A stretch of DNA of 64,000 nt from an uncultured Chloroflexia bacterium (GTDB lineage Bacteria; Chloroflexota; Anaerolineae; CG2-30-64-16): positions 192,001-256,000 of the forward strand of contig CAWEMM010000010.1 in assembly GCA_963810095.1 (NCBI GenBank), read 5' to 3'. Below, in pieces: positions 8,251-17,931 of the stretch. The notes beneath the pieces are model-generated. The model searched no databases. It saw only the letters and a list, made by a program, of their open reading frames with translations, and was not told the DNA's origin. Both the position numbers and the translations under genes were made by a program. Each line of letters opens with the position of its first letter. Positions within the stretch are counted from its first letter, which is position 1.

Positions 8251-9219
8251 TTATTGTCTTGCTTCAGCAGGCTGCTGGCGTTTGCCGACGAGCCACAGGA
8301 CCCCCCCGGGCAGGCTGCCCAGGAACATGATCGCCTGCATCAGGATCGAGACGGCGAGTGCATGGGCCACCGGAACGCCGGCGAGCCCATAGAAGAACGG
8401 GTAAGCGGTCTGATTCACGCCAATGCCGCCGATGGAGATCGGGACCATCCCGACGAGGGCGATCAGCGGGTTGAACAACGCGATCGCGGCCAGCGACATG
8501 CCGCCGCCCATGGACTGCGAGAGGATCCAGTTGACCAACGTCGTGCAGGCGATGCCGAGCAGGCCGATGCCGAACGCGAGGGCCAGAGCCCGGTACTGGA
8601 AGCGATACGCGCCAAAGGCATTCGACAGCCGGCCCCACAGTGGGGCCAGCGGACGGAGCAGGCGGAACTGAAAGATGCGGGTGATGATGTCGCGCAGCCG
8701 CCGGCTGATCAGGAGCGCAAAGCCGGCGATCAGCACGACGAGCGCCAGCGCCGCCACCCACTCCACCTGCTGCAGTTCTTCGTGCCCGGTCAGGTTCACG
8801 GCGATGAACGCAGCGAAGGCGGCCGTCGTCATGTAGGCCATCAGCCCGACGACCCGGTCGACGATGACGGAGACCGCGGCGTCCGCACCCCGGTCGGTGT
8901 AGCGCGCGAGGCTGAACCCCCGCACCACGTCGCCGCCCACGTTCGCCGGGAGGAAGTTGTTGAAGAAGAATCCGGCGAAGATGAAGCGGAGCACCGCGCC
9001 GAACGGCACGACGACGCCCTGCGCGCGCATCAACACCTGCCATTTCGCGCCGTTGATGACTATGGCGAGCATGTAGAAGGCGAGTGCAAGGACGAACGCC
9101 GCCGGGTTGGCGCGGGCGAGCTGCGCGGCGACCTTAGGGAAATCGACCCGGGAGAAGGCAAACGCGATCAGCCCGAGGCTGACGACGACCTTGAGGACTG
9201 TGGTGAGTTTATCGCGCAC
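8251..9219 (-). CDS. Lysylphosphatidylglycerol synthase TM / flippase-like membrane protein
   Basis: Multi-TM; FFNNFLPANVGGDVVR, PISIGGIGV motifs. Confidence 0.85.
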   Translation of the reverse strand: MRDKLTTVLKVVVSLGLIAFAFSRVDFPKVAAQLARANPAAFVLALAFYMLAIVINGAKWQVLMRAQGVVVPFGAVLRFIFAGFFFNNFLPANVGGDVVRGFSLARYTDRGADAAVSVIVDRVVGLMAYMTTAAFAAFIAVNLTGHEELQQVEWVAALALVVLIAGFALLISRRLRDIITRIFQFRLLRPLAPLWGRLSNAFGAYRFQYRALALAFGIGLLGIACTTLVNWILSQSMGGGMSLAAIALFNPLIALVGMVPISIGGIGVNQTAYPFFYGLAGVPVAHALAVSILMQAIMFLGSLPGGVLWLVGKRQQPAEARQ

Positions 9220-10180: not shown

Positions 10181-10246
10181 CAGTTCCTCCGGGGATGCTG
10201 ATGCCGGCATTATAACAGGAACTGATAACGCGCGCCAAAGAGCGAA

Positions 10247-10436
10247 TGGGACGCAGATTGAACTGATGGAACTGATCTACATGATTGTTCTTGTACAGAT
10301 CAGGTGAATCAGTCCGATCAGCCAAATCAGCGTCCCGATCGGAAGTGGGACACAGATTGAACTGATTGAATTGATCTACATGATTGTTCTTGTTCAGACC
10401 AGGTGAATCAGTCCGATCAGCCTAATCAGCGTCCCA
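10247..10436. repeat. Two tandem ~90-bp palindromic repeats (GGGACGCAGAT...ATCAGCGTCCC family), period 99
   Basis: Copies at 10247-10336 and 10346-10436; relatives at 13908-13994 and 49351-49450. Confidence 0.85.
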
Positions 10437-11572
10437 TTTCCAGTCGCCTGGCCCACGACGTGCGTCGCGGTGCGATGCAAGGGCAGGCAGCCCTGGGCCG
10501 CGAGCGCGGGCGACGGTGCGGTGGCCTCGTCGGGCTTGTCGGAGAGGGCAACCATGAGGCAGCCCCGCGCCTTCAGCCACTCGCACGCCTCGAGGACCTC
10601 GCGCGTCATGCAGACCTCCTCGACCAGCCGCTGGGCCAGTTGCGCGTCGGCAGGCAGGTGCCCCATGCGCGAGACCGTCTCCTGGAACTCGCGCGTCCGG
10701 AATGCTTTGAAGGGGGTCAGGTCGCCGGCCAGCGTGCGCCGGTACACCTCGTCGTGAGTCGCCTGGACACCTTTGGGCATGGCGTCACGCTTTGCGTCCA
10801 TCATGGACATGAACTGGCGGAAATCTTTCAGCCTGCCGTCGCCGATCTGCGCCACCAACTCGTCCACCCCGATCATCCCTGCGCCCGTCATCAGGCAGGC
10901 GTAGGCGACGTTATCCTGGTTGTCGGCGGTGAACGGGTGATACTTGGACGTGTTGAGCACCGCGTAGGCCTGGCGGAACTCGCTCTCGCTGAAGCCGGGG
11001 CCGATCGCCTCGTTCAGCGTGGCCTGGATGGCGGCCACCCGCGCATGGTCGATCGACTTGTCGTTGCGCCCGCGTGCGCCCAGCGCAGTCTTGTCGATGT
11101 CGACGATGACGACCGTCCCGGCGTCCAGCGCAGCGCCGGCGGCCAGCGTCTGCCGGACAAAGTCGGCGACGGCGATCCAGCGGTTGGCTTCGTAGATGCC
11201 CTGCCCGGGCAACCCGTCTCGCTCTTTCATCTGGGGGTGCTCGTCTTTTTCGGCGGCGATCAGGCACCAGCCGGGCCAGCCGGTCAGCGTCCGCAGGTTG
11301 TGGAATGCGCCGCCGTCGCTGAGCAGGTTGTCGCCCAGGTAGAGGATCTCGCTCAGCGCGGGGCCCCGGGGCCGGGCGATGCCTTGCGCGTGGGTCAGCA
11401 GCCGCTCCAGCGCGCGCGCGTAGGCCATGTCCAGCTTGCGCGGGGGCACCGGTCCGTCCATGCCGATCTCATGCCAGATGTCGGCGTAGCGCGGGAGGCG
11501 GCTGTCGACCGCGTTCAGATCGCGATAAATCACCAGATCGCCGAACACATCGGCCAGGGAGCGTAATTCCAT
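10394..11572 (-). CDS. Hypothetical protein with circularly permuted HAD-like motifs
   Basis: Motif order PRKLD (III), YLGDNLLSD (IV), VIVDIDKT (I), WLKARGCLMVALSDK (II). Confidence 0.75.
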   Translation of the reverse strand: MELRSLADVFGDLVIYRDLNAVDSRLPRYADIWHEIGMDGPVPPRKLDMAYARALERLLTHAQGIARPRGPALSEILYLGDNLLSDGGAFHNLRTLTGWPGWCLIAAEKDEHPQMKERDGLPGQGIYEANRWIAVADFVRQTLAAGAALDAGTVVIVDIDKTALGARGRNDKSIDHARVAAIQATLNEAIGPGFSESEFRQAYAVLNTSKYHPFTADNQDNVAYACLMTGAGMIGVDELVAQIGDGRLKDFRQFMSMMDAKRDAMPKGVQATHDEVYRRTLAGDLTPFKAFRTREFQETVSRMGHLPADAQLAQRLVEEVCMTREVLEACEWLKARGCLMVALSDKPDEATAPSPALAAQGCLPLHRTATHVVGQATGNGTLIRLIGLIHLV

Positions 11573-11586
11573 GTGACCCTCATCTT

Positions 11587-11661
11587 CACCACGAAGACAC
11601 CAAGTCACAAAGCTTCACAAAGCCTTCGTGACTCTTTGAGTCTTCGTGTCTTTGTGGTTAA
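11587..11661. repeat. CACAAAG-family palindrome overlapping the asd stop codon
   Basis: caccacgaagacaccaag...cttcgtgtctttgtggttaa. Confidence 0.7.
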
Positions 11662-12806
11662 AGCCAACCCTGTGCGTACAGCAGTTCCGCGTTGAGCAGC
11701 GCGCCGCCGGCTGCGCCGCGGATCGTGTTGTGACCTAGCACGATGAATTTGTAATCGAAGAGCGGGTCGGGGCGCAGGCGTCCCACGCTCGTCGCCATCC
11801 CGTGGCCGGCCAACCGGTCCAGCCGGGGCTGCGGCCGGTCCTGCTCGGTGTGCAGGACGATGGCCGGGTTGGGCGCCGTTGGCAGGCCCATGCGTTGGGG
11901 CTCGCCGGCGTAGGACGTGAAGGCTGCGGCCACGTCCTCCAGGGAGGCCTTCGCTTTCAGCTTGACGCTGACGGCTTCGAGGTGTCCGTTACGCACGGCC
12001 ACCCGGTTTGCCTGTGCGCTCACCAGGAAGTCGGCGAATTCGATGGCATCGGCCCCCAGCCGCCCCAACAGCTTGCGGGGCTCGATCTCGATCTTCTCTT
12101 CCTCGCCGCCGATGTAGGGCACGACGTTGTCCAGGATGTCGAGCGACGCGACGCCGGGATAGCCCGCGCCGGATAGAGCCTGCATCGTGACGACGTTGAC
12201 CGCCACCAGCCCGAACGCGTCGTGCAGCGGCTTGAGCGCGCAGACCAGGTGGGTGCTCGAGCAATTGGGGTTGGTGACGATGAAACCAACGCGGCCGCCT
12301 GCCGAACGCTTGCCCAGCGCCAACCGCTTGCGCTGCTGCGCATGGATGAGGGCAGTGTGTTCGGGGTTCACGTCGGGGATGAGCAGCGGCACGTCGGCAT
12401 CCATGCGGTGGGCAGACGCATTCGAGCAGACGGCAAAACCTGCATCGGCCAGCTCGTTTTCGACCAGCCCGGCCGCGCCGCCCGGAATGGCGGAGAACAG
12501 CAGGCGCACGTCGCCTGCCGCGCTTTCGATGGCGCCCGGCTCCGTCGGGATGAGCAGCATGTCCTGCACGTTCGCCGGCATGCCCCCCCGAAGGAGCCAC
12601 TTCGCCGCATCGCCGTAGCGCTTGCCGACCGAGCGGTCCGAGGCGGTCAGGCAGCCGATTTCGAACCACGGATGCCCGGCCAGCAGCTGCACGAAGCGCT
12701 GCCCCACCGCGCCCGTGGCGCCCACCACGCCGACCTTGATCTTTGGCTCGGGTCCTTTTGCGCGTTCCGTGGCGGCCTGCACTGCCGGATTTCTTGCTTC
12801 AGTCAT
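11658..12806 (-). CDS. asd: Aspartate-semialdehyde dehydrogenase (archaeal/eukaryotic-like type)
   Basis: GATGAVGQRF, NPNCS, MQALSGAGYPG, HNTIRGAAGG. Confidence 0.96.
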   Translation of the reverse strand: MTEARNPAVQAATERAKGPEPKIKVGVVGATGAVGQRFVQLLAGHPWFEIGCLTASDRSVGKRYGDAAKWLLRGGMPANVQDMLLIPTEPGAIESAAGDVRLLFSAIPGGAAGLVENELADAGFAVCSNASAHRMDADVPLLIPDVNPEHTALIHAQQRKRLALGKRSAGGRVGFIVTNPNCSSTHLVCALKPLHDAFGLVAVNVVTMQALSGAGYPGVASLDILDNVVPYIGGEEEKIEIEPRKLLGRLGADAIEFADFLVSAQANRVAVRNGHLEAVSVKLKAKASLEDVAAAFTSYAGEPQRMGLPTAPNPAIVLHTEQDRPQPRLDRLAGHGMATSVGRLRPDPLFDYKFIVLGHNTIRGAAGGALLNAELLYAQGWL

Positions 12807-12807
12807 C

Positions 12808-13890
12808 TCAACCTCCCAACGTCTGCCCCAGGGCGACGATATCCGAATGCACGCCGGCCGCCGCCGCTTCCACCCCTGCGCCCCGCCCCTGCAGCACGAG
12901 CGGCGTGTCGGGGTAGTAGCGGGTGCGGAAGGCGACCAGGTTGTCGTTGCCGCGCAGCAAGCCGAGTGGGCTGTCCAGCGGCACAGCTTTCACGCCGACG
13001 CTCGCACGGCCGTCCTGCAGGCTGACCGCATAGCGCAGCGTGGCGCCGGTCGATGCCGCTTCGCGCGCTTGCTCGGCGCACTCGTCGTCCAAATCGGACA
13101 GCCGGTCGAGGAACTCTGCCATGGGCAGCCCGGCGAGGGCCGGCGGCACCAACGATTGGATGCCTACCTCGAGCAGTTCCATCTGCCAGCCGATGGTGCG
13201 CGCCAGGATCAGGGCCTTGCGTGCAACGTCCAGGCCCCCCAGGTCGATGCGGGGATCCGGCTCGGTGTAGCCGCGCGCCATCGCCTCGCGCACCTGGCCC
13301 GAGAACGGTTGGCCCTCCTGGATGCCCGTGTAGAGGAAGCCGAGCGTCCCGCTCAGCGCCCCTTCCACCGAGGCGATCACGTCGTCGGCCCGCATCAGCC
13401 CGAGGGTGGCCTCGATGATGGGCACCGCCGACCCGACCGTCGACTCGTAACGGAAGCGGCGGCTGCCCGCAAGCGAGTTGAACACTGCCTGGGGCCCGGT
13501 GAGTGGAATCTTGTTCGCCGTGACCGCGCCATAGCCGCGCTGGACGGCCAGCAGCAGCGCGGGCACCGTGGCCTCGCTGGCGGTCACGTCCACGACGATG
13601 GCGCGGTCCTGCCCGACCAGGTCCACGATCGCAGGGAGGTCCTGCTGGGGCGAACCGTACTCCGTGTTGGCGAACGAGTCACCCGCATGCTTGGCGGCCG
13701 ACACCGTGCGGAGCACCTCGGGCCACACGCCCTTTTCGTCGACGACGGCGCCGTCGCGGTCACACCAGGCGGCGATGCTCAGTGCGAGCGCATCACGCTC
13801 GGCGTGCAGCCCTGCCGAGCCGAGCAACTGGCGCACCAGCGCGCGGCCAACCTTGCCGGCGCCGAAGATGATCAACGGGACTCTTTTCAT
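12808..13890 (-). CDS. hom: Homoserine dehydrogenase (ThrA-like HSDH domain)
   Basis: GAGKVG, VTANK, YESTVGSAVP, SGTLG, GYTEPDPRIDLGGLDVARKALIL. Confidence 0.92.
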   Translation of the reverse strand: MKRVPLIIFGAGKVGRALVRQLLGSAGLHAERDALALSIAAWCDRDGAVVDEKGVWPEVLRTVSAAKHAGDSFANTEYGSPQQDLPAIVDLVGQDRAIVVDVTASEATVPALLLAVQRGYGAVTANKIPLTGPQAVFNSLAGSRRFRYESTVGSAVPIIEATLGLMRADDVIASVEGALSGTLGFLYTGIQEGQPFSGQVREAMARGYTEPDPRIDLGGLDVARKALILARTIGWQMELLEVGIQSLVPPALAGLPMAEFLDRLSDLDDECAEQAREAASTGATLRYAVSLQDGRASVGVKAVPLDSPLGLLRGNDNLVAFRTRYYPDTPLVLQGRGAGVEAAAAGVHSDIVALGQTLGG

Positions 13891-13907
13891 AGTTCCAGCT
13901 TTCGAAC

Positions 13908-13994
13908 GGGACGCAGATTGAACCGATTGGACTGATTGACCTGATCGAAGGGTAGGGATCATCTACATCAGTCTTATCAGTCCGATCAGCGTCC
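13908..13994. repeat. GGGACGCAGAT-family palindrome
   Basis: gggacgcagattgaaccgatt...atcagtccgatcagcgtcc, abutting the lysC stop. Confidence 0.75.
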
Positions 13995-15412
13995 TATTTT
14001 GTCTCGCCCAGCGCAAATGCGTCGTGAATATAGCGAATGCCGGCGTCGGCGTCGCCCGCGGCCAGGGCCAGCGAGATGTTCGTCTCGGAGGAACCCTGCG
14101 CGACGGCGATCACGTTCACGCGCTTCTCGCCCAGCGCAGAGAACAGGCGGGCGGCGATGCCCGGCGTGCCGCGCATCCCTTCGCCGACGATGGCTACGAT
14201 CACCACGTCCGGCTCGATCGTGACCCGGTCGATCAGGCGGCGCTTGATCTCTTCGCCGAAGGCCCGCTCCAGCGCGTCGCAGACCGGCTCGGCGTCGGCC
14301 TCGGGCACGACGAAGCAGATGCTCTGCTCGGAGGATGCCTGCGAGATCATCAGGACGTTGGCGCCCCGCTGTGCGACCGCCGCGAAGGTGCGCGCCGCAA
14401 TGCCCGGCACGCCCATCATGCCGCGGCCGGCGACCGTCACCAGCGCCAGCCCCCGGATGACCGTCAGCGCCTTGACCGTGCCCCCGTTCGACGACTTGGG
14501 GACGACGCGCGTGCCGGGAAAGCCGGGGTTGAAGGTGTTGCGGACGCTGATGACGATGCCCCGGTCGATCGCGGGGAGCATGGTCTTCGGGTGCAGCACC
14601 TTCGCCCCGAAATAGGCCAGTTCGGCGGCCTCACCGTACGTCAGCTCGGCCAACGGCTGCGCATCCTTGACGATGCGCGGGTCTGCCGTCAGCACCCCGT
14701 CCACGTCGGTCCAGATCTGGATTTCGTCCGCGTCGAGCGCGGCCCCCAGAATCGCGGCGGAGTAGTCCGAGCCGCCCCGGCCGAGGACGGTGGGCACGCC
14801 CTGCGGCGTCGCCGCGACGAAGCCGGTCACGACCGGAACGACGCCCTTTTCCAGCAGCGGCAGCAGGCGGCTGCGGGTGGCCGTCCGTGTCGCTTCCATG
14901 TCAGGAGCCGCCGAGGCGTGGTTGTCGTCCGTGACGATCAGTGCGCCGTCTGGCGACCCCGCATCCACGGCTTCGGCCTCGAGGCCCCGGGCGCGCATGG
15001 CCGCGGCCAGAATGGGCGCCATGAGCCGCTCGCCCAGGCCGGAAATGACCGCAAGCCCGCGGTCCGTCAGTTCGCCCAGGATTGCGACGGCCATGCACAA
15101 GCGCTCGAACTCGCGCACGCGCTCGTCGGTTTGCGCCTGGAGCACGGCAAGGTCGTCCAGATCGTGCACGAGCGCCTCGGCCGCATCGCGGTGCCGGCCG
15201 ATCAGCGTCTGGCGGGCGTCCCGGTAGGCCTGCCGGTCGCCCCGGGCAGCGGCGTTGGCCGAGTTGATCAACAGGTCAGTCACCCCCCGCATGGCGGAGG
15301 TGACGGCGACGATCTGCTGATCCTTGCGCCGCTGGTCTGCGAGAATGCTGACGACCTGGTTGATGGCCTTCGCGTCGTTGACCGACGTTCCGCCAAACTT
15401 GAGCACTTGCAT
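13994..15412 (-). CDS. lysC: Aspartate kinase with two ACT domains
   Basis: KFGGTSV, LGRGGSDYSA, WTDVDG, YFGAKVLHP, SQASSE. Confidence 0.96.
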   Translation of the reverse strand: MQVLKFGGTSVNDAKAINQVVSILADQRRKDQQIVAVTSAMRGVTDLLINSANAAARGDRQAYRDARQTLIGRHRDAAEALVHDLDDLAVLQAQTDERVREFERLCMAVAILGELTDRGLAVISGLGERLMAPILAAAMRARGLEAEAVDAGSPDGALIVTDDNHASAAPDMEATRTATRSRLLPLLEKGVVPVVTGFVAATPQGVPTVLGRGGSDYSAAILGAALDADEIQIWTDVDGVLTADPRIVKDAQPLAELTYGEAAELAYFGAKVLHPKTMLPAIDRGIVISVRNTFNPGFPGTRVVPKSSNGGTVKALTVIRGLALVTVAGRGMMGVPGIAARTFAAVAQRGANVLMISQASSEQSICFVVPEADAEPVCDALERAFGEEIKRRLIDRVTIEPDVVIVAIVGEGMRGTPGIAARLFSALGEKRVNVIAVAQGSSETNISLALAAGDADAGIRYIHDAFALGETK

Positions 15413-15434: not shown

Positions 15435-15740
15435 ACGAAAAAGCTCCTCGCCGTTGGGGCGAGGAGCTTCGCGGTTCCACCCAATATTATCCTGCCGGCA
15501 CGTCTCGCGTAAGCAGGCATCTTACAGAGCCGTAACGTGGCTGGGCGGAGCGCCATACACTCCCCGGTCGGCCATCGTCGTGAAGGGCCGTCGGCCGGAT
15601 TTGTGGCGCTCGCTCTCGGGGGGTTTTCGGTGGTTGCCGGGCGAAGGCGGGTTTACACTCGTCGGCTTTCAGCCGATGACCCGCCGTCTCTGCCGCCGTT
15701 TCGCCGCCTACTCGTCCCGATCGACGCTTTCGGTATCAAA
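15435..15740 (-). ncRNA. T-box riboswitch leader (likely Thr, ACC specifier) with terminator
   Basis: Stem I AGTA, AGAGA and GCTGAAAG motifs; specifier loop gaaaaccc; T-box aatattGGGTGGAACCGCG at 15470-15488; terminator aagctcctcgcc/ggcgaggagctt plus U-tract. Confidence 0.9.
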
Positions 15741-15750
15741 AGTTGGACGG

Positions 15751-15778
15751 ATTATAACGGCTGCGGCCGGCTTGTCAA
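15751..15778 (-). promoter_or_regulatory. Consensus sigma70 promoter for the T-box leader
   Basis: TTGACA-16-TATAAT. Confidence 0.8.
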
Positions 15779-15843: not shown

Positions 15844-16848
15844 TCAGGTCTTGACCAAGTTGACCCAATAGTCGATCACCTCGAAGCCGCGGCGGCGGAA
15901 GAGCGAAAAGGCTTCGGCATTGTCCTTCGTGTGCACGTGCACTTCGACCGAGACGTAACCACGGTTAGCCATCTCGGCCAGCGCCCGGTCGAGCAGGAAC
16001 GAACCGAACCGTAAGCCCCGGTACTGCCGCGCCAGCCCAATCCACGCCAGCGCGGCGATGGTCGGGTCGGGCATAGGATACCAGGCGATGCTCCCGACAG
16101 CCCGGTTGCCATCCGCAACGACGAGGCCCTGGTAACGCCGGCCCGCATTGTTGCCCCACGCCCGCAGTTGGTAAACCGGCTCGTCGCCCTGCCACGGCGA
16201 GCGTTCGTCGATCGACACCAGGCGCAGGTCGCGCTGGCCCAGCCCCGGATCGTCGGGCCGCTCGCGGTCGTGGAGCGAGGCCGACATGGTCACGTCGCCC
16301 GGGCTGCTGACCTGGTAGCCCCGCTTGTTGAGCCATGCGACGAGGTCCCGGTCGTTCACCGCGCTGATCGCCATGCTCTCGGTCGAGCCGTACCAGGGCG
16401 CCCACAGCCGCTCCATGATCCCGTAGAAGGGTGCGTTCTGCGCTGCGAAGTACATGGGGCAGTAGTAGAGGTAGTTTTCCGCCGCATTAAGAAGTCGGGT
16501 GCCCAGGCGCTGCTTGCGATAGCGGGGGTCGACAGCCAGCCAGGCGACATGATGGCGGGGTTCGGCCGAACGGTTGGCCGGAATGGCGCTCGCCGGCTTG
16601 ATGGCATGGACCGCGCCGGCGAGCCGGTCGCCGTCCATGCCCAGGATCAGGCCGCCCGGGTCGAAGGCCGGTTGCACCAGCACGCGCTCCGCAAAGTCGG
16701 CGACGGTGATCGGCGCATAATGGCGATGGCCGGCGAACGCCTCATTCAGAAAGTCGATGAGCGCGGGCAGGTGCTCCGGGCTGAAGTGACGGAGCTTGAC
16801 CGTGGCCTGGGTCTGAACATCGTTGTTGTTTGTCGTAGCGCTGGTCAC
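15844..16848 (-). CDS. Tandem (two-domain) GNAT acetyltransferase
   Basis: Two acetyl-CoA motifs, AVDPRYRKQRLGTRLL and GLARQYRGLRFGSFLL; GTG start inferred. Confidence 0.8.
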   Translation of the reverse strand: MTSATTNNNDVQTQATVKLRHFSPEHLPALIDFLNEAFAGHRHYAPITVADFAERVLVQPAFDPGGLILGMDGDRLAGAVHAIKPASAIPANRSAEPRHHVAWLAVDPRYRKQRLGTRLLNAAENYLYYCPMYFAAQNAPFYGIMERLWAPWYGSTESMAISAVNDRDLVAWLNKRGYQVSSPGDVTMSASLHDRERPDDPGLGQRDLRLVSIDERSPWQGDEPVYQLRAWGNNAGRRYQGLVVADGNRAVGSIAWYPMPDPTIAALAWIGLARQYRGLRFGSFLLDRALAEMANRGYVSVEVHVHTKDNAEAFSLFRRRGFEVIDYWVNLVKT

Positions 16849-16850
16849 TC

Positions 16851-17902
16851 TTACGTCCCTACATAGCGTGCATAAAGGGTGGCCGCCTGGACTTCGTCCT
16901 GCGTGCCCTTGATGATCGCCCGGCCATCGGGGAACACGGTGAACTCGTGGCCGTCCACGTTGGCCCGCAGCAGGAAGGGGTTGCTTGCGCACGTCCGTCG
17001 CCCCGCCCAGCCGCAGCCGCTCGGCCAGGTCGTCCAGCGACATGCCCTCGCCGGTGCCGGCCCCGCGGCTGCCGGCCACCGACACCTGCACCGCATCCCG
17101 GCCGCACAAGGACGTCGTCCGCGTGCCCGCTTCCGCGTTCAAGAACTCGTATTCGTGGGTGCCGCACGTCGGACAATCGGGCCGCGGCGGGCCGAGCTCG
17201 AACTTGTCATACGAGCTATCCCACAGGTCGACGTGGACCATGCCGGTGTTGATTTCCCCCTTGCCGACGATCAGCTTGATCGCTTCGGCCGCGGCGATCG
17301 AGCCCATCAAGCGACACGATGGGGCCGGTAATGCCTGCCGTGTCGCAGGTGGCGACCGTGCCGGGCGCGGGCAGCTCGCCCATGATGCAGCGCAGGCAGG
17401 GGGTGACGCCGGGCCTGACCGTGTGGGTCATGCCGTAGGAGGCCAGTACGCCGGAGTAAACCCACGGCTTGCCCAGCTTGACGCACGCGTCGTTGAGCAG
17501 GTAGCGGGTGGAGAAGTTGTCCGTGCCGTCGAGGACGACGTCGGCATCCGAGATCAGGCCGACGACGTTGGTCGGGTTGACGTCCGTAACGATGTCCTCG
17601 ATCTCGATCGAGCTGTTGATCCGGCGCAGCTTGCGCGCCGCGGCAACCGCCTTCGGCAGCATCTGGGCCAGGTCGTCCTCGTCGTACAGGAGCTGGCGCT
17701 GCAGGTTATTCAGCTCGACAAAGTCGCGATCGACGATGCGCAGGTGGCCCACGCCGGCCCGCGCCAGGTGGTTCGCCAGCACCGAGCCCGTCGCGCCGAC
17801 GCCGATGATCGTGACGTGTGCATCCAGCAGCCGGCGCTGCCCGTCCTCGCCAATGCCGGGAAAGATTGTTTGTCGCGCATACCGCGCCAGATTAGGTTCC
17901 AT
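16851..17902 (-). CDS. ThiF/MoeB-family E1-like adenylyltransferase (two apparent frameshifts, ~17310 and ~16985)
   Basis: RYARQ, GVGATG, DRDFVELNNLQRQ, PCLRC, then DCPTCG and FPDGRAIIKGT in other frames. Confidence 0.85.
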
Positions 17903-17931
17903 AAGAGGGATTTTACCACAGAAGGACATGA

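Follow-up and report, generated by a model that had tools for sequence, protein, structure and literature searches.

Which enzyme phosphorylates homoserine in a genome that carries lysC, hom, asd and thrC but in which no thrB can be found? This question is raised by a locus of an uncultured Chloroflexia bacterium (Anaerolineae) in which the first three of these genes are followed by a fourth, here called X. The window, by which we mean the whole stretch of 64,000 nucleotides analysed, contains no thrB, as the original prediction had stated, and none was found in the whole 6.13-Mb assembly (88.5% complete). thrC scored over cut-off in this genome. The GapMind 2026 preprint lists homoserine kinase as one of the four steps behind most of the remaining amino-acid-biosynthesis gaps in prototrophic prokaryotes; 16 of 208 prototrophs lack it. 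Because of such gaps, auxotrophy and cross-feeding are wrongly predicted. The original prediction had proposed that X is a circularly permuted HAD-like enzyme that replaces ThrB or, alternatively, that it works with the glycosyltransferase and flippase genes downstream. The features of the locus, all on the minus strand, are as follows.

15751..15778, minus: sigma-70-type promoter, TTGACA-16 nt-TATAAT (12 of 12 positions), before the leader
15452..15733, minus: T-box leader (Rfam RF00230) with specifier loop GAAA-ACC-C and T-box sequence TGGGTGGAACCGCG
15440..15470, minus: intrinsic terminator of the T-box, a 13-pair stem followed by a T-run, located 28 nt upstream of the start of lysC
13994..15412, minus: lysC, aspartokinase, AA_kinase plus two ACT domains (PF00696 4.9e-50, PF22468 1.8e-44)
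12808..13962, minus: hom, homoserine dehydrogenase (PF00742 2e-38)
11658..12806, minus: asd, aspartate-semialdehyde dehydrogenase (PF02774 7.6e-36, PF01118 5.4e-30)
10394..11572, minus: X, candidate homoserine kinase substitute, circularly permuted HAD-like, 392 aa
9209..10210, minus: GT2 glycosyltransferase, downstream of X
8251..9219, minus: PF03706 'LPG synthase TM / flippase-like' gene, downstream of X

The gene order is lysC-hom-asd-X, and X lies in the same orientation 85 bp after asd, as originally described. An HD-domain gene also lies downstream of X on the same strand in the window. The T-box leader was matched over its full length by RF00230 in an E-value scan (model positions 1-219 of 219, 48.7 bits, E 1.2e-9), and was not found at the Rfam gathering score of 93. 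The call below the Rfam cut-off is backed by the conserved T-box sequence, the terminator and the conservation seen in related leaders. As in RF00230, the stem I specifier loop and the T-box sequence are present and the terminator stands directly before the first gene; the leader differs from the Rfam family in its low score and in a 50-nt insertion in the stem II region. The earlier claim of a T-box-led operon thus stood with respect to the full-length match, the T-box sequence and the terminator, but the score fell short of the gathering threshold. The GAAAACC specifier loop was kept in all 18 aligned related leaders, ACC being followed by A in four of them, and the specifier can be read as ACC (Thr). 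TTGACA and TATAAT boxes were found at the same place in related leaders. No T-box was detected before the thrC of this genome at E <= 0.01. A promoter-like site (10 of 12 positions, with an extended -10 TG) is located just before the start of the GT2 gene, suggesting that the GT2 genes form a separate unit.

X is an uninterrupted open reading frame whose translation is 392 aa long. A longer GTG start is available at 11608, and 27 homologues start at the MELRSL position instead. Searches of the window protein returned no Pfam or NCBIfam family match: the best match to a HAD profile was TIGR01488 (E 0.15), there was no match to GHMP families or to TIGR00191, and TIGR02137, TIGR02535 and TIGR00938 were absent from the NCBIfam matches at E <= 1. 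PDB sequence searches with the protein and with a profile gave chance-level hits only (ZapA; a retroviral capsid, E at least 0.1). In the ESM Atlas, X was found only in its own unnamed clusters; HAD clusters scored 0.77-0.78, values that serve as leads only. Clustering of the family gives more than 2,400 groups at 90% identity and 390 at 50%, and neither Pfam nor NCBIfam has a model for it. A search of the openly searchable literature returned no description of this family or of a HAD-type ThrB substitute in Chloroflexota, and no report of a natural circularly permuted HAD. To our knowledge, X would be the first naturally circularly permuted HAD scaffold.

The proposed permutation is based on the order of the HAD motifs along X, which is III (P44-R45-K46), IV (G80-D81...D86), I (D158-x-D160-x-T162), cap and then II (S344). 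The canonical order I-II-III-IV is not present in X. All four strings quoted in the original prediction occur in this order, namely PRKLD (residues 44-48), ILYLGDNLLSD (76-86), VIVDIDKT (155-162) and, for motif II, EWLKARGCLMVALSDK (331-346). The regions of X are as follows.

X residues about 40-130: motif III/IV half of the core
X residues 153-162: motif I, with D158-I-D160-K-T162
X residues about 163-335: helical cap, ~170 residues
X residues 339-373: motif II and the last core strand

Conservation was determined over 70 relatives with identity down to about 25%. K46, D81, D86, D158, D160, T162 and S344 were each conserved in at least 90% of these, much more than chance would give, as was P44-R45-K46, and G80, D345 and P347 were invariant. 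Many invariant Arg, Asp, His and Asn residues lie in the cap. A template-free AF2 model of X (pLDDT 88.2, pTM 0.87) predicted that D158 and D160 are at the end of strand 153-158, that S344 comes directly after strand 339-343, that G80-D81 terminate strand 75-80 and that K46 is just before or at the start of helix 49-66. The structural check proposed for X came out in two ways: the model places the motifs at strand ends, or for the lysine at a helix start, where HADs have them, but Foldseek against the PDB returned no hit at E <= 0.001. Among the Pfam hits of the 70 relatives, HAD-clan families recurred most, with 13 member-by-family hits to six such families at E <= 1 (PF00702, PF03767 and PF11019 in three relatives each, PF12710 in two, PF13419 and PF25109 in one each). 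The PF00702 cut-off was passed by one of the 70 relatives, P0213, whose residues 145-353 matched positions 3-142 of 191 (26.6 bits, cut-off 26.4). In relative P0230, residues 54-86 matched positions 139-171 of 178 of PF13419, the motif IV end. In distant relatives, the C-terminal region matches the first part of HAD Pfam profiles and vice versa, as expected of a circular permutation. Together with the motif order, these swapped matches suggest that X is a circularly permuted relative rather than a canonical member of the HADs. When family alignments of X, native and computationally permuted, were compared by hhalign with a small profile built from seven HAD-IB sequences of related genomes, the probability was about 2% or less; the motifs were paired as expected in this comparison, which at such a probability is not evidence. 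Overall, the sequence and the model support a circularly permuted HAD-like fold, and the best explanation is that X represents a circularly permuted branch, not named before, within the HAD (haloacid dehalogenase-like) phosphotransferase superfamily.

The neighbourhood of X was compared across 80 related loci. X is directly after asd in 69 of them and directly after lysC in three, and 15 have a co-oriented thrC downstream. One genome has lysC-X-thrC with no gap. The asd-X pair was kept in all four loci of other classes, at 32-44% identity. In some lineages the aspartokinase of the same operon is fused to X, and two LysC-X fusion proteins are P0125 (841 aa) and P0271 (879 aa). Behind X, a GT2 gene was found in 21 loci, the LPG-TM gene in 20 and the HD gene in 18, all in the closest relatives only. 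This linkage is lost beyond about 50% identity, whereas asd-X persists to 32%, and in other clades thrC follows X instead of the GT2 genes.

We then compared the occurrence of X with that of thrB. Among 301 genomes of the class, X alone was present in 135, thrB alone in 111, both genes in two and neither in 53. The Fisher p for this exclusion is 3e-38, a value that overstates independence since the genomes are related. Five taxonomic families hold both X-type and thrB-type genomes, and except in the two genomes with both genes each genome has one or the other; independent switches between X and thrB have perhaps occurred about five to ten times. Outside this class, at least two Chloroflexota families also carry X, and thrB was over cut-off in none of the five X-bearing genomes from other classes. 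thrC was over cut-off in all five single-contig X-bearing genomes and in 12 of 13 genomes of the same family. In the two genomes with both genes, X and thrB are intact; a pseudogene suspected in one of them was rejected, as the 'TGA inside' was the gene's own stop codon. Among the 53 genomes with neither gene, thrC was present in four of the five tested, so at least one further way to fill the step exists, and in principle genomes with X might use it too.

Known substitutes for ThrB were also sought. HomK (TIGR02535), ThrB-alt (TIGR00938) and ThrH (TIGR02137) were not found over cut-off in this genome (88.5% complete). Its best TIGR00191 hit, at 25 bits, is its mevalonate kinase. A GHMP paralogue acting as ThrB was rejected, as the five GHMP kinases of the genome were assigned to other types (two galactokinases, the mevalonate kinase, an HddA-like kinase and a fucokinase-like kinase). 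HomK was likewise rejected as an explanation, with TIGR02535 over cut-off in one of the 301 class genomes; TIGR02535 hits of about 180-200 bits were common, and alike in thrB-bearing and X-bearing genomes.

As X belongs to an aspartate-pathway operon under threonine control and occurs nearly only where thrB is absent, it probably fills the missing step. We estimate at roughly 65% the probability that X stands in for homoserine kinase as a non-orthologous enzyme and acts via an aspartyl-phosphate intermediate. The motifs, conservation, gene order, regulatory signal and phyletic complementarity are observations, whereas the substrate, the reaction and any donor named here are inferred. X would convert L-homoserine, supplied by the co-transcribed LysC, Asd and Hom, to O-phospho-L-homoserine, the substrate of ThrC, and uncharged tRNA-Thr would turn on expression through the T-box leader. 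The chemistry would be the ordinary HAD two-step reaction. D158 would take the phosphoryl group from the donor to form the aspartyl-phosphate enzyme, D160 would be the general acid/base, and S344, K46, D81 and D86 would hold the phosphate and Mg2+. The helical cap may close over the site, shutting out water and positioning the homoserine hydroxyl as the acceptor. Candidate donors are phosphoserine (as in ThrH), ATP and the LysC product aspartyl-4-phosphate. The last of these would make X an ATP-independent 'kinase' that passes phosphate from the beta-aspartyl phosphate of the operon's aspartokinase to D158 and on to homoserine, an idea that we regard as quite improbable. If it were true, one aspartokinase turnover would pay for both ends of the pathway, threonine flux would be coupled to LysC activity, and aspartyl-phosphate:homoserine phosphotransferase would be a new reaction class.

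The placement of X behind asd or lysC in 72 of 80 loci, the putative Thr T-box and the near-exclusion with thrB support the proposed ThrB replacement at the level of comparative genomics. The expected link to threonine-pathway genes and the anti-correlation with thrB were both found, and neither a fold other than HAD, nor homologues unlinked to thr genes, nor a canonical thrB in this genome came to light. X might still be a HAD-type phosphatase that serves the aspartate/serine network in another way, with the ThrB gap filled by another enzyme. Most HADs, and likewise most with the DxDxT motif, are phosphatases and not phosphotransferases. Canonical SerB (TIGR00338) was over cut-off in none of 21 relatives, which would fit X as a missing phosphoserine phosphatase; X might also act on aspartyl phosphate or phosphohomoserine, as a phosphatase for proofreading or regulation. 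The class genomes that keep thrC with neither X nor thrB also favour this explanation, in that an analogue exists in the class. However, SerB is equally missing in the thrB-bearing relatives G001 and G003, so that a pure SerB role leaves the exclusion between X and thrB unexplained, and HAD-IB-like proteins with 84-103 bits in several of these genomes are plausible phosphoserine phosphatases. An enzyme that destroys an intermediate would also be odd under a T-box that responds to Thr starvation and as a fusion to aspartokinase. We therefore consider a phosphatase role unlikely.

The same exclusion is left unexplained by two further readings. The suggestion that X is a sugar- or lipid-phosphate phosphatase working with the downstream GT2, LPG-synthase-TM and HD genes draws on their position on the same strand after X in the window and in the closest relatives. 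It is now disfavoured and appears very improbable: the GT2 gene follows in just 21 of the 80 loci, asd-X outlasts this linkage and extends to other classes, thrC takes the place of these genes in other clades, and the promoter-like site before GT2 points to a separate unit. The LysC-X fusions and the constant neighbourhood with lysC and asd would also suit a catalytically minor or regulatory partner of aspartokinase, such as a sensor or scaffold, whose HAD-like residues bind a ligand without turnover. We give this hardly any credence, as the Asp nucleophile, Asp+2, Ser, Lys and two acidic residues, each kept in at least 90% of the 70 relatives, are typical of active enzymes.

A homoserine kinase substitute of the kind proposed for X has partial parallels in known enzymes. 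ThrB (TIGR00191), a GHMP family member that takes phosphate directly from ATP, occupies the same pathway slot and often adjoins thrC (in six of the 18 thrB loci examined); its fold and chemistry are unrelated to those of X, with no similarity between the two. SerB and the C1-capped HAD-IB proteins (TIGR00338, TIGR01488) share with X the DxDxT / S / K / GDxxxD set and a helical cap straight after motif I, and the SerB ligand is a small amino-acid phosphate ester, like the ligand proposed for X. Unlike in X, the motifs of SerB run in the canonical order, and the SerB cap is about 80 residues long. ThrH is a phosphoserine:homoserine phosphotransferase of the HAD family and an accessory gene beside a normal thrB, whereas X occurs where thrB is missing. 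X would likewise phosphorylate homoserine with a HAD-type active site, but it falls outside TIGR02137, its motifs run III-IV-I-II, its length is about twice that of ThrH, and its cap comprises about 170 residues. In P. aeruginosa, the HAD-type ThrH phosphorylates homoserine without a GHMP kinase and can replace ThrB, according to the GapMind 2026 preprint, which cites Singh et al. 2004. HomK/ThrB2 (TIGR02535) is a phosphoglycerate-mutase-like homoserine phosphotransferase of Bacteroidota for which no donor is known. According to PMC9026213 and the GapMind 2026 preprint, its operon position and complementary occurrence led to its discovery, and complementation confirmed it afterwards. HomK and X would both be non-orthologous ThrB substitutes, found by the same logic, from different superfamilies.

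If the proposed function is right, X replaces homoserine kinase in many Anaerolineae as well as in two or more Chloroflexota families outside that class. One uncharacterised family would then close the gap for all of these, and X would be the second, independent HAD enzyme recruited to phosphorylate homoserine. X would also show a textbook fold in a naturally circularly permuted form. When metabolism is reconstructed from metagenomes, asd-X without thrB could serve as a clean annotation rule. The Anaerolineae are a large and environmentally abundant lineage of sludge, sediments and soils.

X, the 392-aa candidate substitute for homoserine kinase, is encoded in the window with the following features.

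10394-11572, minus strand, X, an open frame of 392 codons
11658-12806, minus strand, asd, 85 bp upstream of X
12808-13962, minus strand, hom, upstream of asd
13994-15412, minus strand, lysC, upstream of hom
15470-15440, minus strand, T-box terminator, before lysC
15452-15733, minus strand, T-box, full-length Rfam match (48.7 bits, E 1.2e-9)
15778-15751, minus strand, sigma-70 promoter, perfect (12/12), before lysC

An alternative GTG start at 11608 would add 12 residues to X. The start originally predicted is right, because 27 aligned homologues begin at the MELRSL position. No family was assigned to X by Pfam (one chance match at E <= 0.1) or NCBIfam (best relevant match HAD-IB TIGR01488, E 0.15), and no sequence relatives were found in the PDB. 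The X family is large and well conserved: scoring 8,000 candidates gave 2,441 clusters at E <= 0.001, a library clustered at 50% identity contains 390 representatives, and the typical length is ~378 aa. Every source name among the matches listed is 'hypothetical protein', and the record titles of 80 X loci are those of Anaerolineae, Caldilineae and Thermoflexus MAGs. Some distant relatives are longer: P0214, P0220, P0221, P0228 and P0252 (576-620 aa) have an extra ~200-240 N-terminal residues and P0207 (816 aa) an extra ~430, in each case without a Pfam match, and P0142 (528 aa) has a C-terminal prokaryotic JAB domain.

The four motif strings of the original prediction were located in X at residues 44-48, 76-86, 155-162 and 331-346, confirming the order III-IV-I-II. 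K46, D81, D86, D158, D160, T162 and S344 are conserved in at least 90% of 70 relatives (down to ~25% identity), and G80, D345 and P347 are invariant in the same set. In a template-free AlphaFold2 model built from 28 sequences (pLDDT 88.2, pTM 0.87), strand 153-158 ends with D158/D160, strand 339-343 is followed by S344, strand 75-80 ends with G80-D81, and K46 directly precedes helix 49-66. As modelled, each catalytic residue is at its HAD motif place. The model also has an all-helical insert of ~170 residues (172-335) between motifs I and II, a predicted position that is that of a C1-type cap. Invariant cap residues in the 28-sequence alignment are R167, R169, N170, D171, D175, R178, H212, D217, N218, Q219, D220, H273, D284, K289, R292, E295, E298 and R302.

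HAD membership could not be demonstrated from the window protein by itself and required its relatives. The Pfam families with the most members matched (E <= 1, 70 relatives) were of the HAD clan, namely PF00702 (3 relatives, best E 9.4e-6), PF03767 and PF11019 (3 each), PF12710 (2), and PF13419 and PF25109 (1 each); the other 31 families listed were scattered, mostly single matches. Match positions were obtained by scanning 29 of the 70 relatives one by one. Residues 145-353 of P0213 matched PF00702 positions 3-142 of 191 (26.6 bits against a cut-off of 26.4), P0230 matched PF13419 positions 139-171 of 178 with residues 54-86 and PF00702 positions 44-127 with residues 247-327, and residues 55-106 of P0247 matched PF11019 positions 166-217 of 244. 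The N-terminal part of X therefore resembles the C-terminal end of HAD proteins, and vice versa. Collectively, the conserved motif residues, their modelled placement and the swapped matches argue indirectly for the proposed permuted HAD fold: X has the residues of the HAD superfamily but not its canonical motif order. A search of the openly accessible literature, supplements aside, found no publication on a natural circularly permuted HAD protein or on the X family.

X had been described as co-oriented, 85 bp after asd, in a T-box-led operon. Order and spacing stand; the T-box is full-length but scores below the Rfam gathering score of 93, so that it is missed at the default threshold. Of 52 lysC leaders from related loci, 19 contain the T-box sequence according to a simple motif search. 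In 18 alignable related leaders the specifier loop reads GAAA-ACC-N (at N, C in 14 leaders and A in the other 4), then the closing stem. T-box specifier loops have the architecture GAA, codon, purine, and on this basis we read the putative specifier as ACC, threonine, with AAC as the alternative frame reading. No terminator-like site was found on the minus strand between asd and X or between X and the next gene. Transcription of X with lysC, hom and asd is predicted to be threonine-responsive. No T-box was found for thrC of the source genome, which speaks against the proposed role.

Of the 80 related loci, 69 have asd immediately before X in the same orientation and 3 have lysC before it; 4 have no room upstream of X and 4 have another arrangement. 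The cluster includes hom in 37 of the 80. The asd-X adjacency is kept in four loci of other Chloroflexota classes at 32-44% identity. A distant clade has the order lysC-asd-X-(one or two YdjM-family membrane protein genes)-thrC. Downstream thrC occurs in 15/80 loci (59-64% identity to the source genome's ThrC), immediately adjoining X in loci L068 and L078, and one sampled genome has lysC-X-thrC with thrC immediately adjacent. LysC and X are fused in two protein clusters, P0125 (841 aa) and P0271 (879 aa). The fused LysC half has AA_kinase plus ACT domains, and the source label of P0271, 'bifunctional aspartokinase / homoserine dehydrogenase 1', misnames its C-terminal half. Of the 18 ORFs tested in the interval from X to thrC, 16 matched the small inner-membrane YdjM family (PF04307; L061:9113-9595, L062:9133-10082, L053:9116-10101, L073:8759-9824 and others).

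The source genome (6.13 Mb, 16 contigs) encodes threonine synthase (225 bits). ThrB, HomK/TIGR02535, ThrB-alt and ThrH were not found in this 88.5% complete assembly, extending the reported absence of thrB from the window to the genome. Of the five GHMP kinases encoded in it, two are galactokinases, one is a mevalonate kinase, one is HddA-like and one is fucokinase-like. An even sample of 301 class genomes comprised the source genome and others at least 90% complete. X was present in 137 and thrB in 113 (112 over cut-off), and the expected anti-correlation was evident: 135 had X alone, 111 had thrB alone, 2 carried both genes and 53 carried neither. X is intact in one of the two genomes with both. 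Fisher's p for this exclusion, 3e-38, is not a true probability because the sampled genomes are related. X occurs in 35 taxonomic families and thrB in 22; five families contain both kinds of genome, in which the genes are exclusive genome by genome except in those two, and switches of this kind inside families carry more weight as an argument. thrC was over cut-off in 5/5 single-contig X-bearing genomes and 12/13 genomes of the source genome's family, and HomK in 1/301 class genomes. In a phylum-wide sample X was present in 18 of 201 genomes, including 2/2 and 14/14 in two families outside the class, and thrB was over cut-off in none of five X-bearing genomes tested. Two genomes of a single genus have their thrB match inside a 634-aa open frame, about twice normal length (G012:C1:1848945-1849823, G091:C75:31207-32085), possibly because thrB is fused to an adjacent gene.

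Gene position, LysC fusion, regulation and complementary occurrence are largely independent comparative lines, and because of them we give a probability of about 0.65 that X is a functional substitute for homoserine kinase, in support of the proposed ThrB replacement. It is less likely that X serves this network in another way, as a phosphatase such as phosphoserine phosphatase. SerB (TIGR00338) was over cut-off in 0/21 genomes (the source and its relatives), which would suit that role, but these include thrB-bearing relatives, and the serB gap seems general in the lineage. HAD-IB-like proteins scoring 84-103 bits are present in 8 of the 21. The 53 genomes with neither gene also speak for a phosphatase role and against the main reading: thrC was over cut-off in four of five tested (G010, G014, G021, G022, G023; loci L132-L136), so the class may hold at least one more solution for homoserine phosphorylation, which could also operate in genomes that carry X. 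However, a phosphoserine phosphatase role leaves the X/thrB exclusion unexplained, unless X resembles ThrH in having both activities.

We regard it as very improbable that X works with the downstream genes, as had been offered as an alternative. GT2, LPG-synthase-TM and HD genes follow X in 21, 20 and 18 of the 80 loci, all closer relatives, and a promoter-like site at 10209-10238 (minus strand; 10/12, extended -10 TG) immediately before the GT2 start suggests that GT2, LPG-synthase-TM, HD and GNAT form a transcription unit apart from lysC-hom-asd-X. Equally improbable is a role of X as a regulatory or minor partner of aspartokinase, to which it is fused in two clusters.

As a homoserine kinase substitute, X would work like ThrH. 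It falls outside the ThrH, ThrB, HomK and SerB families. Its predicted HAD catalytic set is complete and conserved. A donor would phosphorylate D158, from which the group would move on to homoserine, at its gamma-hydroxyl, beneath the closed cap to yield the substrate of ThrC. Candidate donors are phosphoserine (by analogy with ThrH), ATP and, speculatively, aspartyl-4-phosphate, prompted by the LysC fusions. Asp at +2 (D160) presumably suits a transferase or phosphatase rather than a P-type ATPase-like long-lived phosphoenzyme. If this is true, ThrB has been displaced non-orthologously by a HAD-type enzyme from a new, permuted, unnamed family. In the passages found, Ashniev et al. 2022 (PMC9026213) describe ThrB2 and report 50 gut genomes in which homoserine kinase is still missing altogether. 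The GapMind 2026 preprint (10.1101/2024.10.14.618325), in the passages found, confirms HomK by complementation, reports thrB missing in 16/208 prototrophs and among four steps making up 65% of remaining gaps, and does not mention Chloroflexota.

Further upstream (15844-17929, minus strand), a ThiF/MoeB-like ORF (17216-17929) overlaps a 488-aa ORF (15844-17310) in a different frame. The latter, with translations judged by eye, seems a continuation of the ThiF-like sequence with a GNAT-like end, suggesting a frameshift or an unusual fusion.
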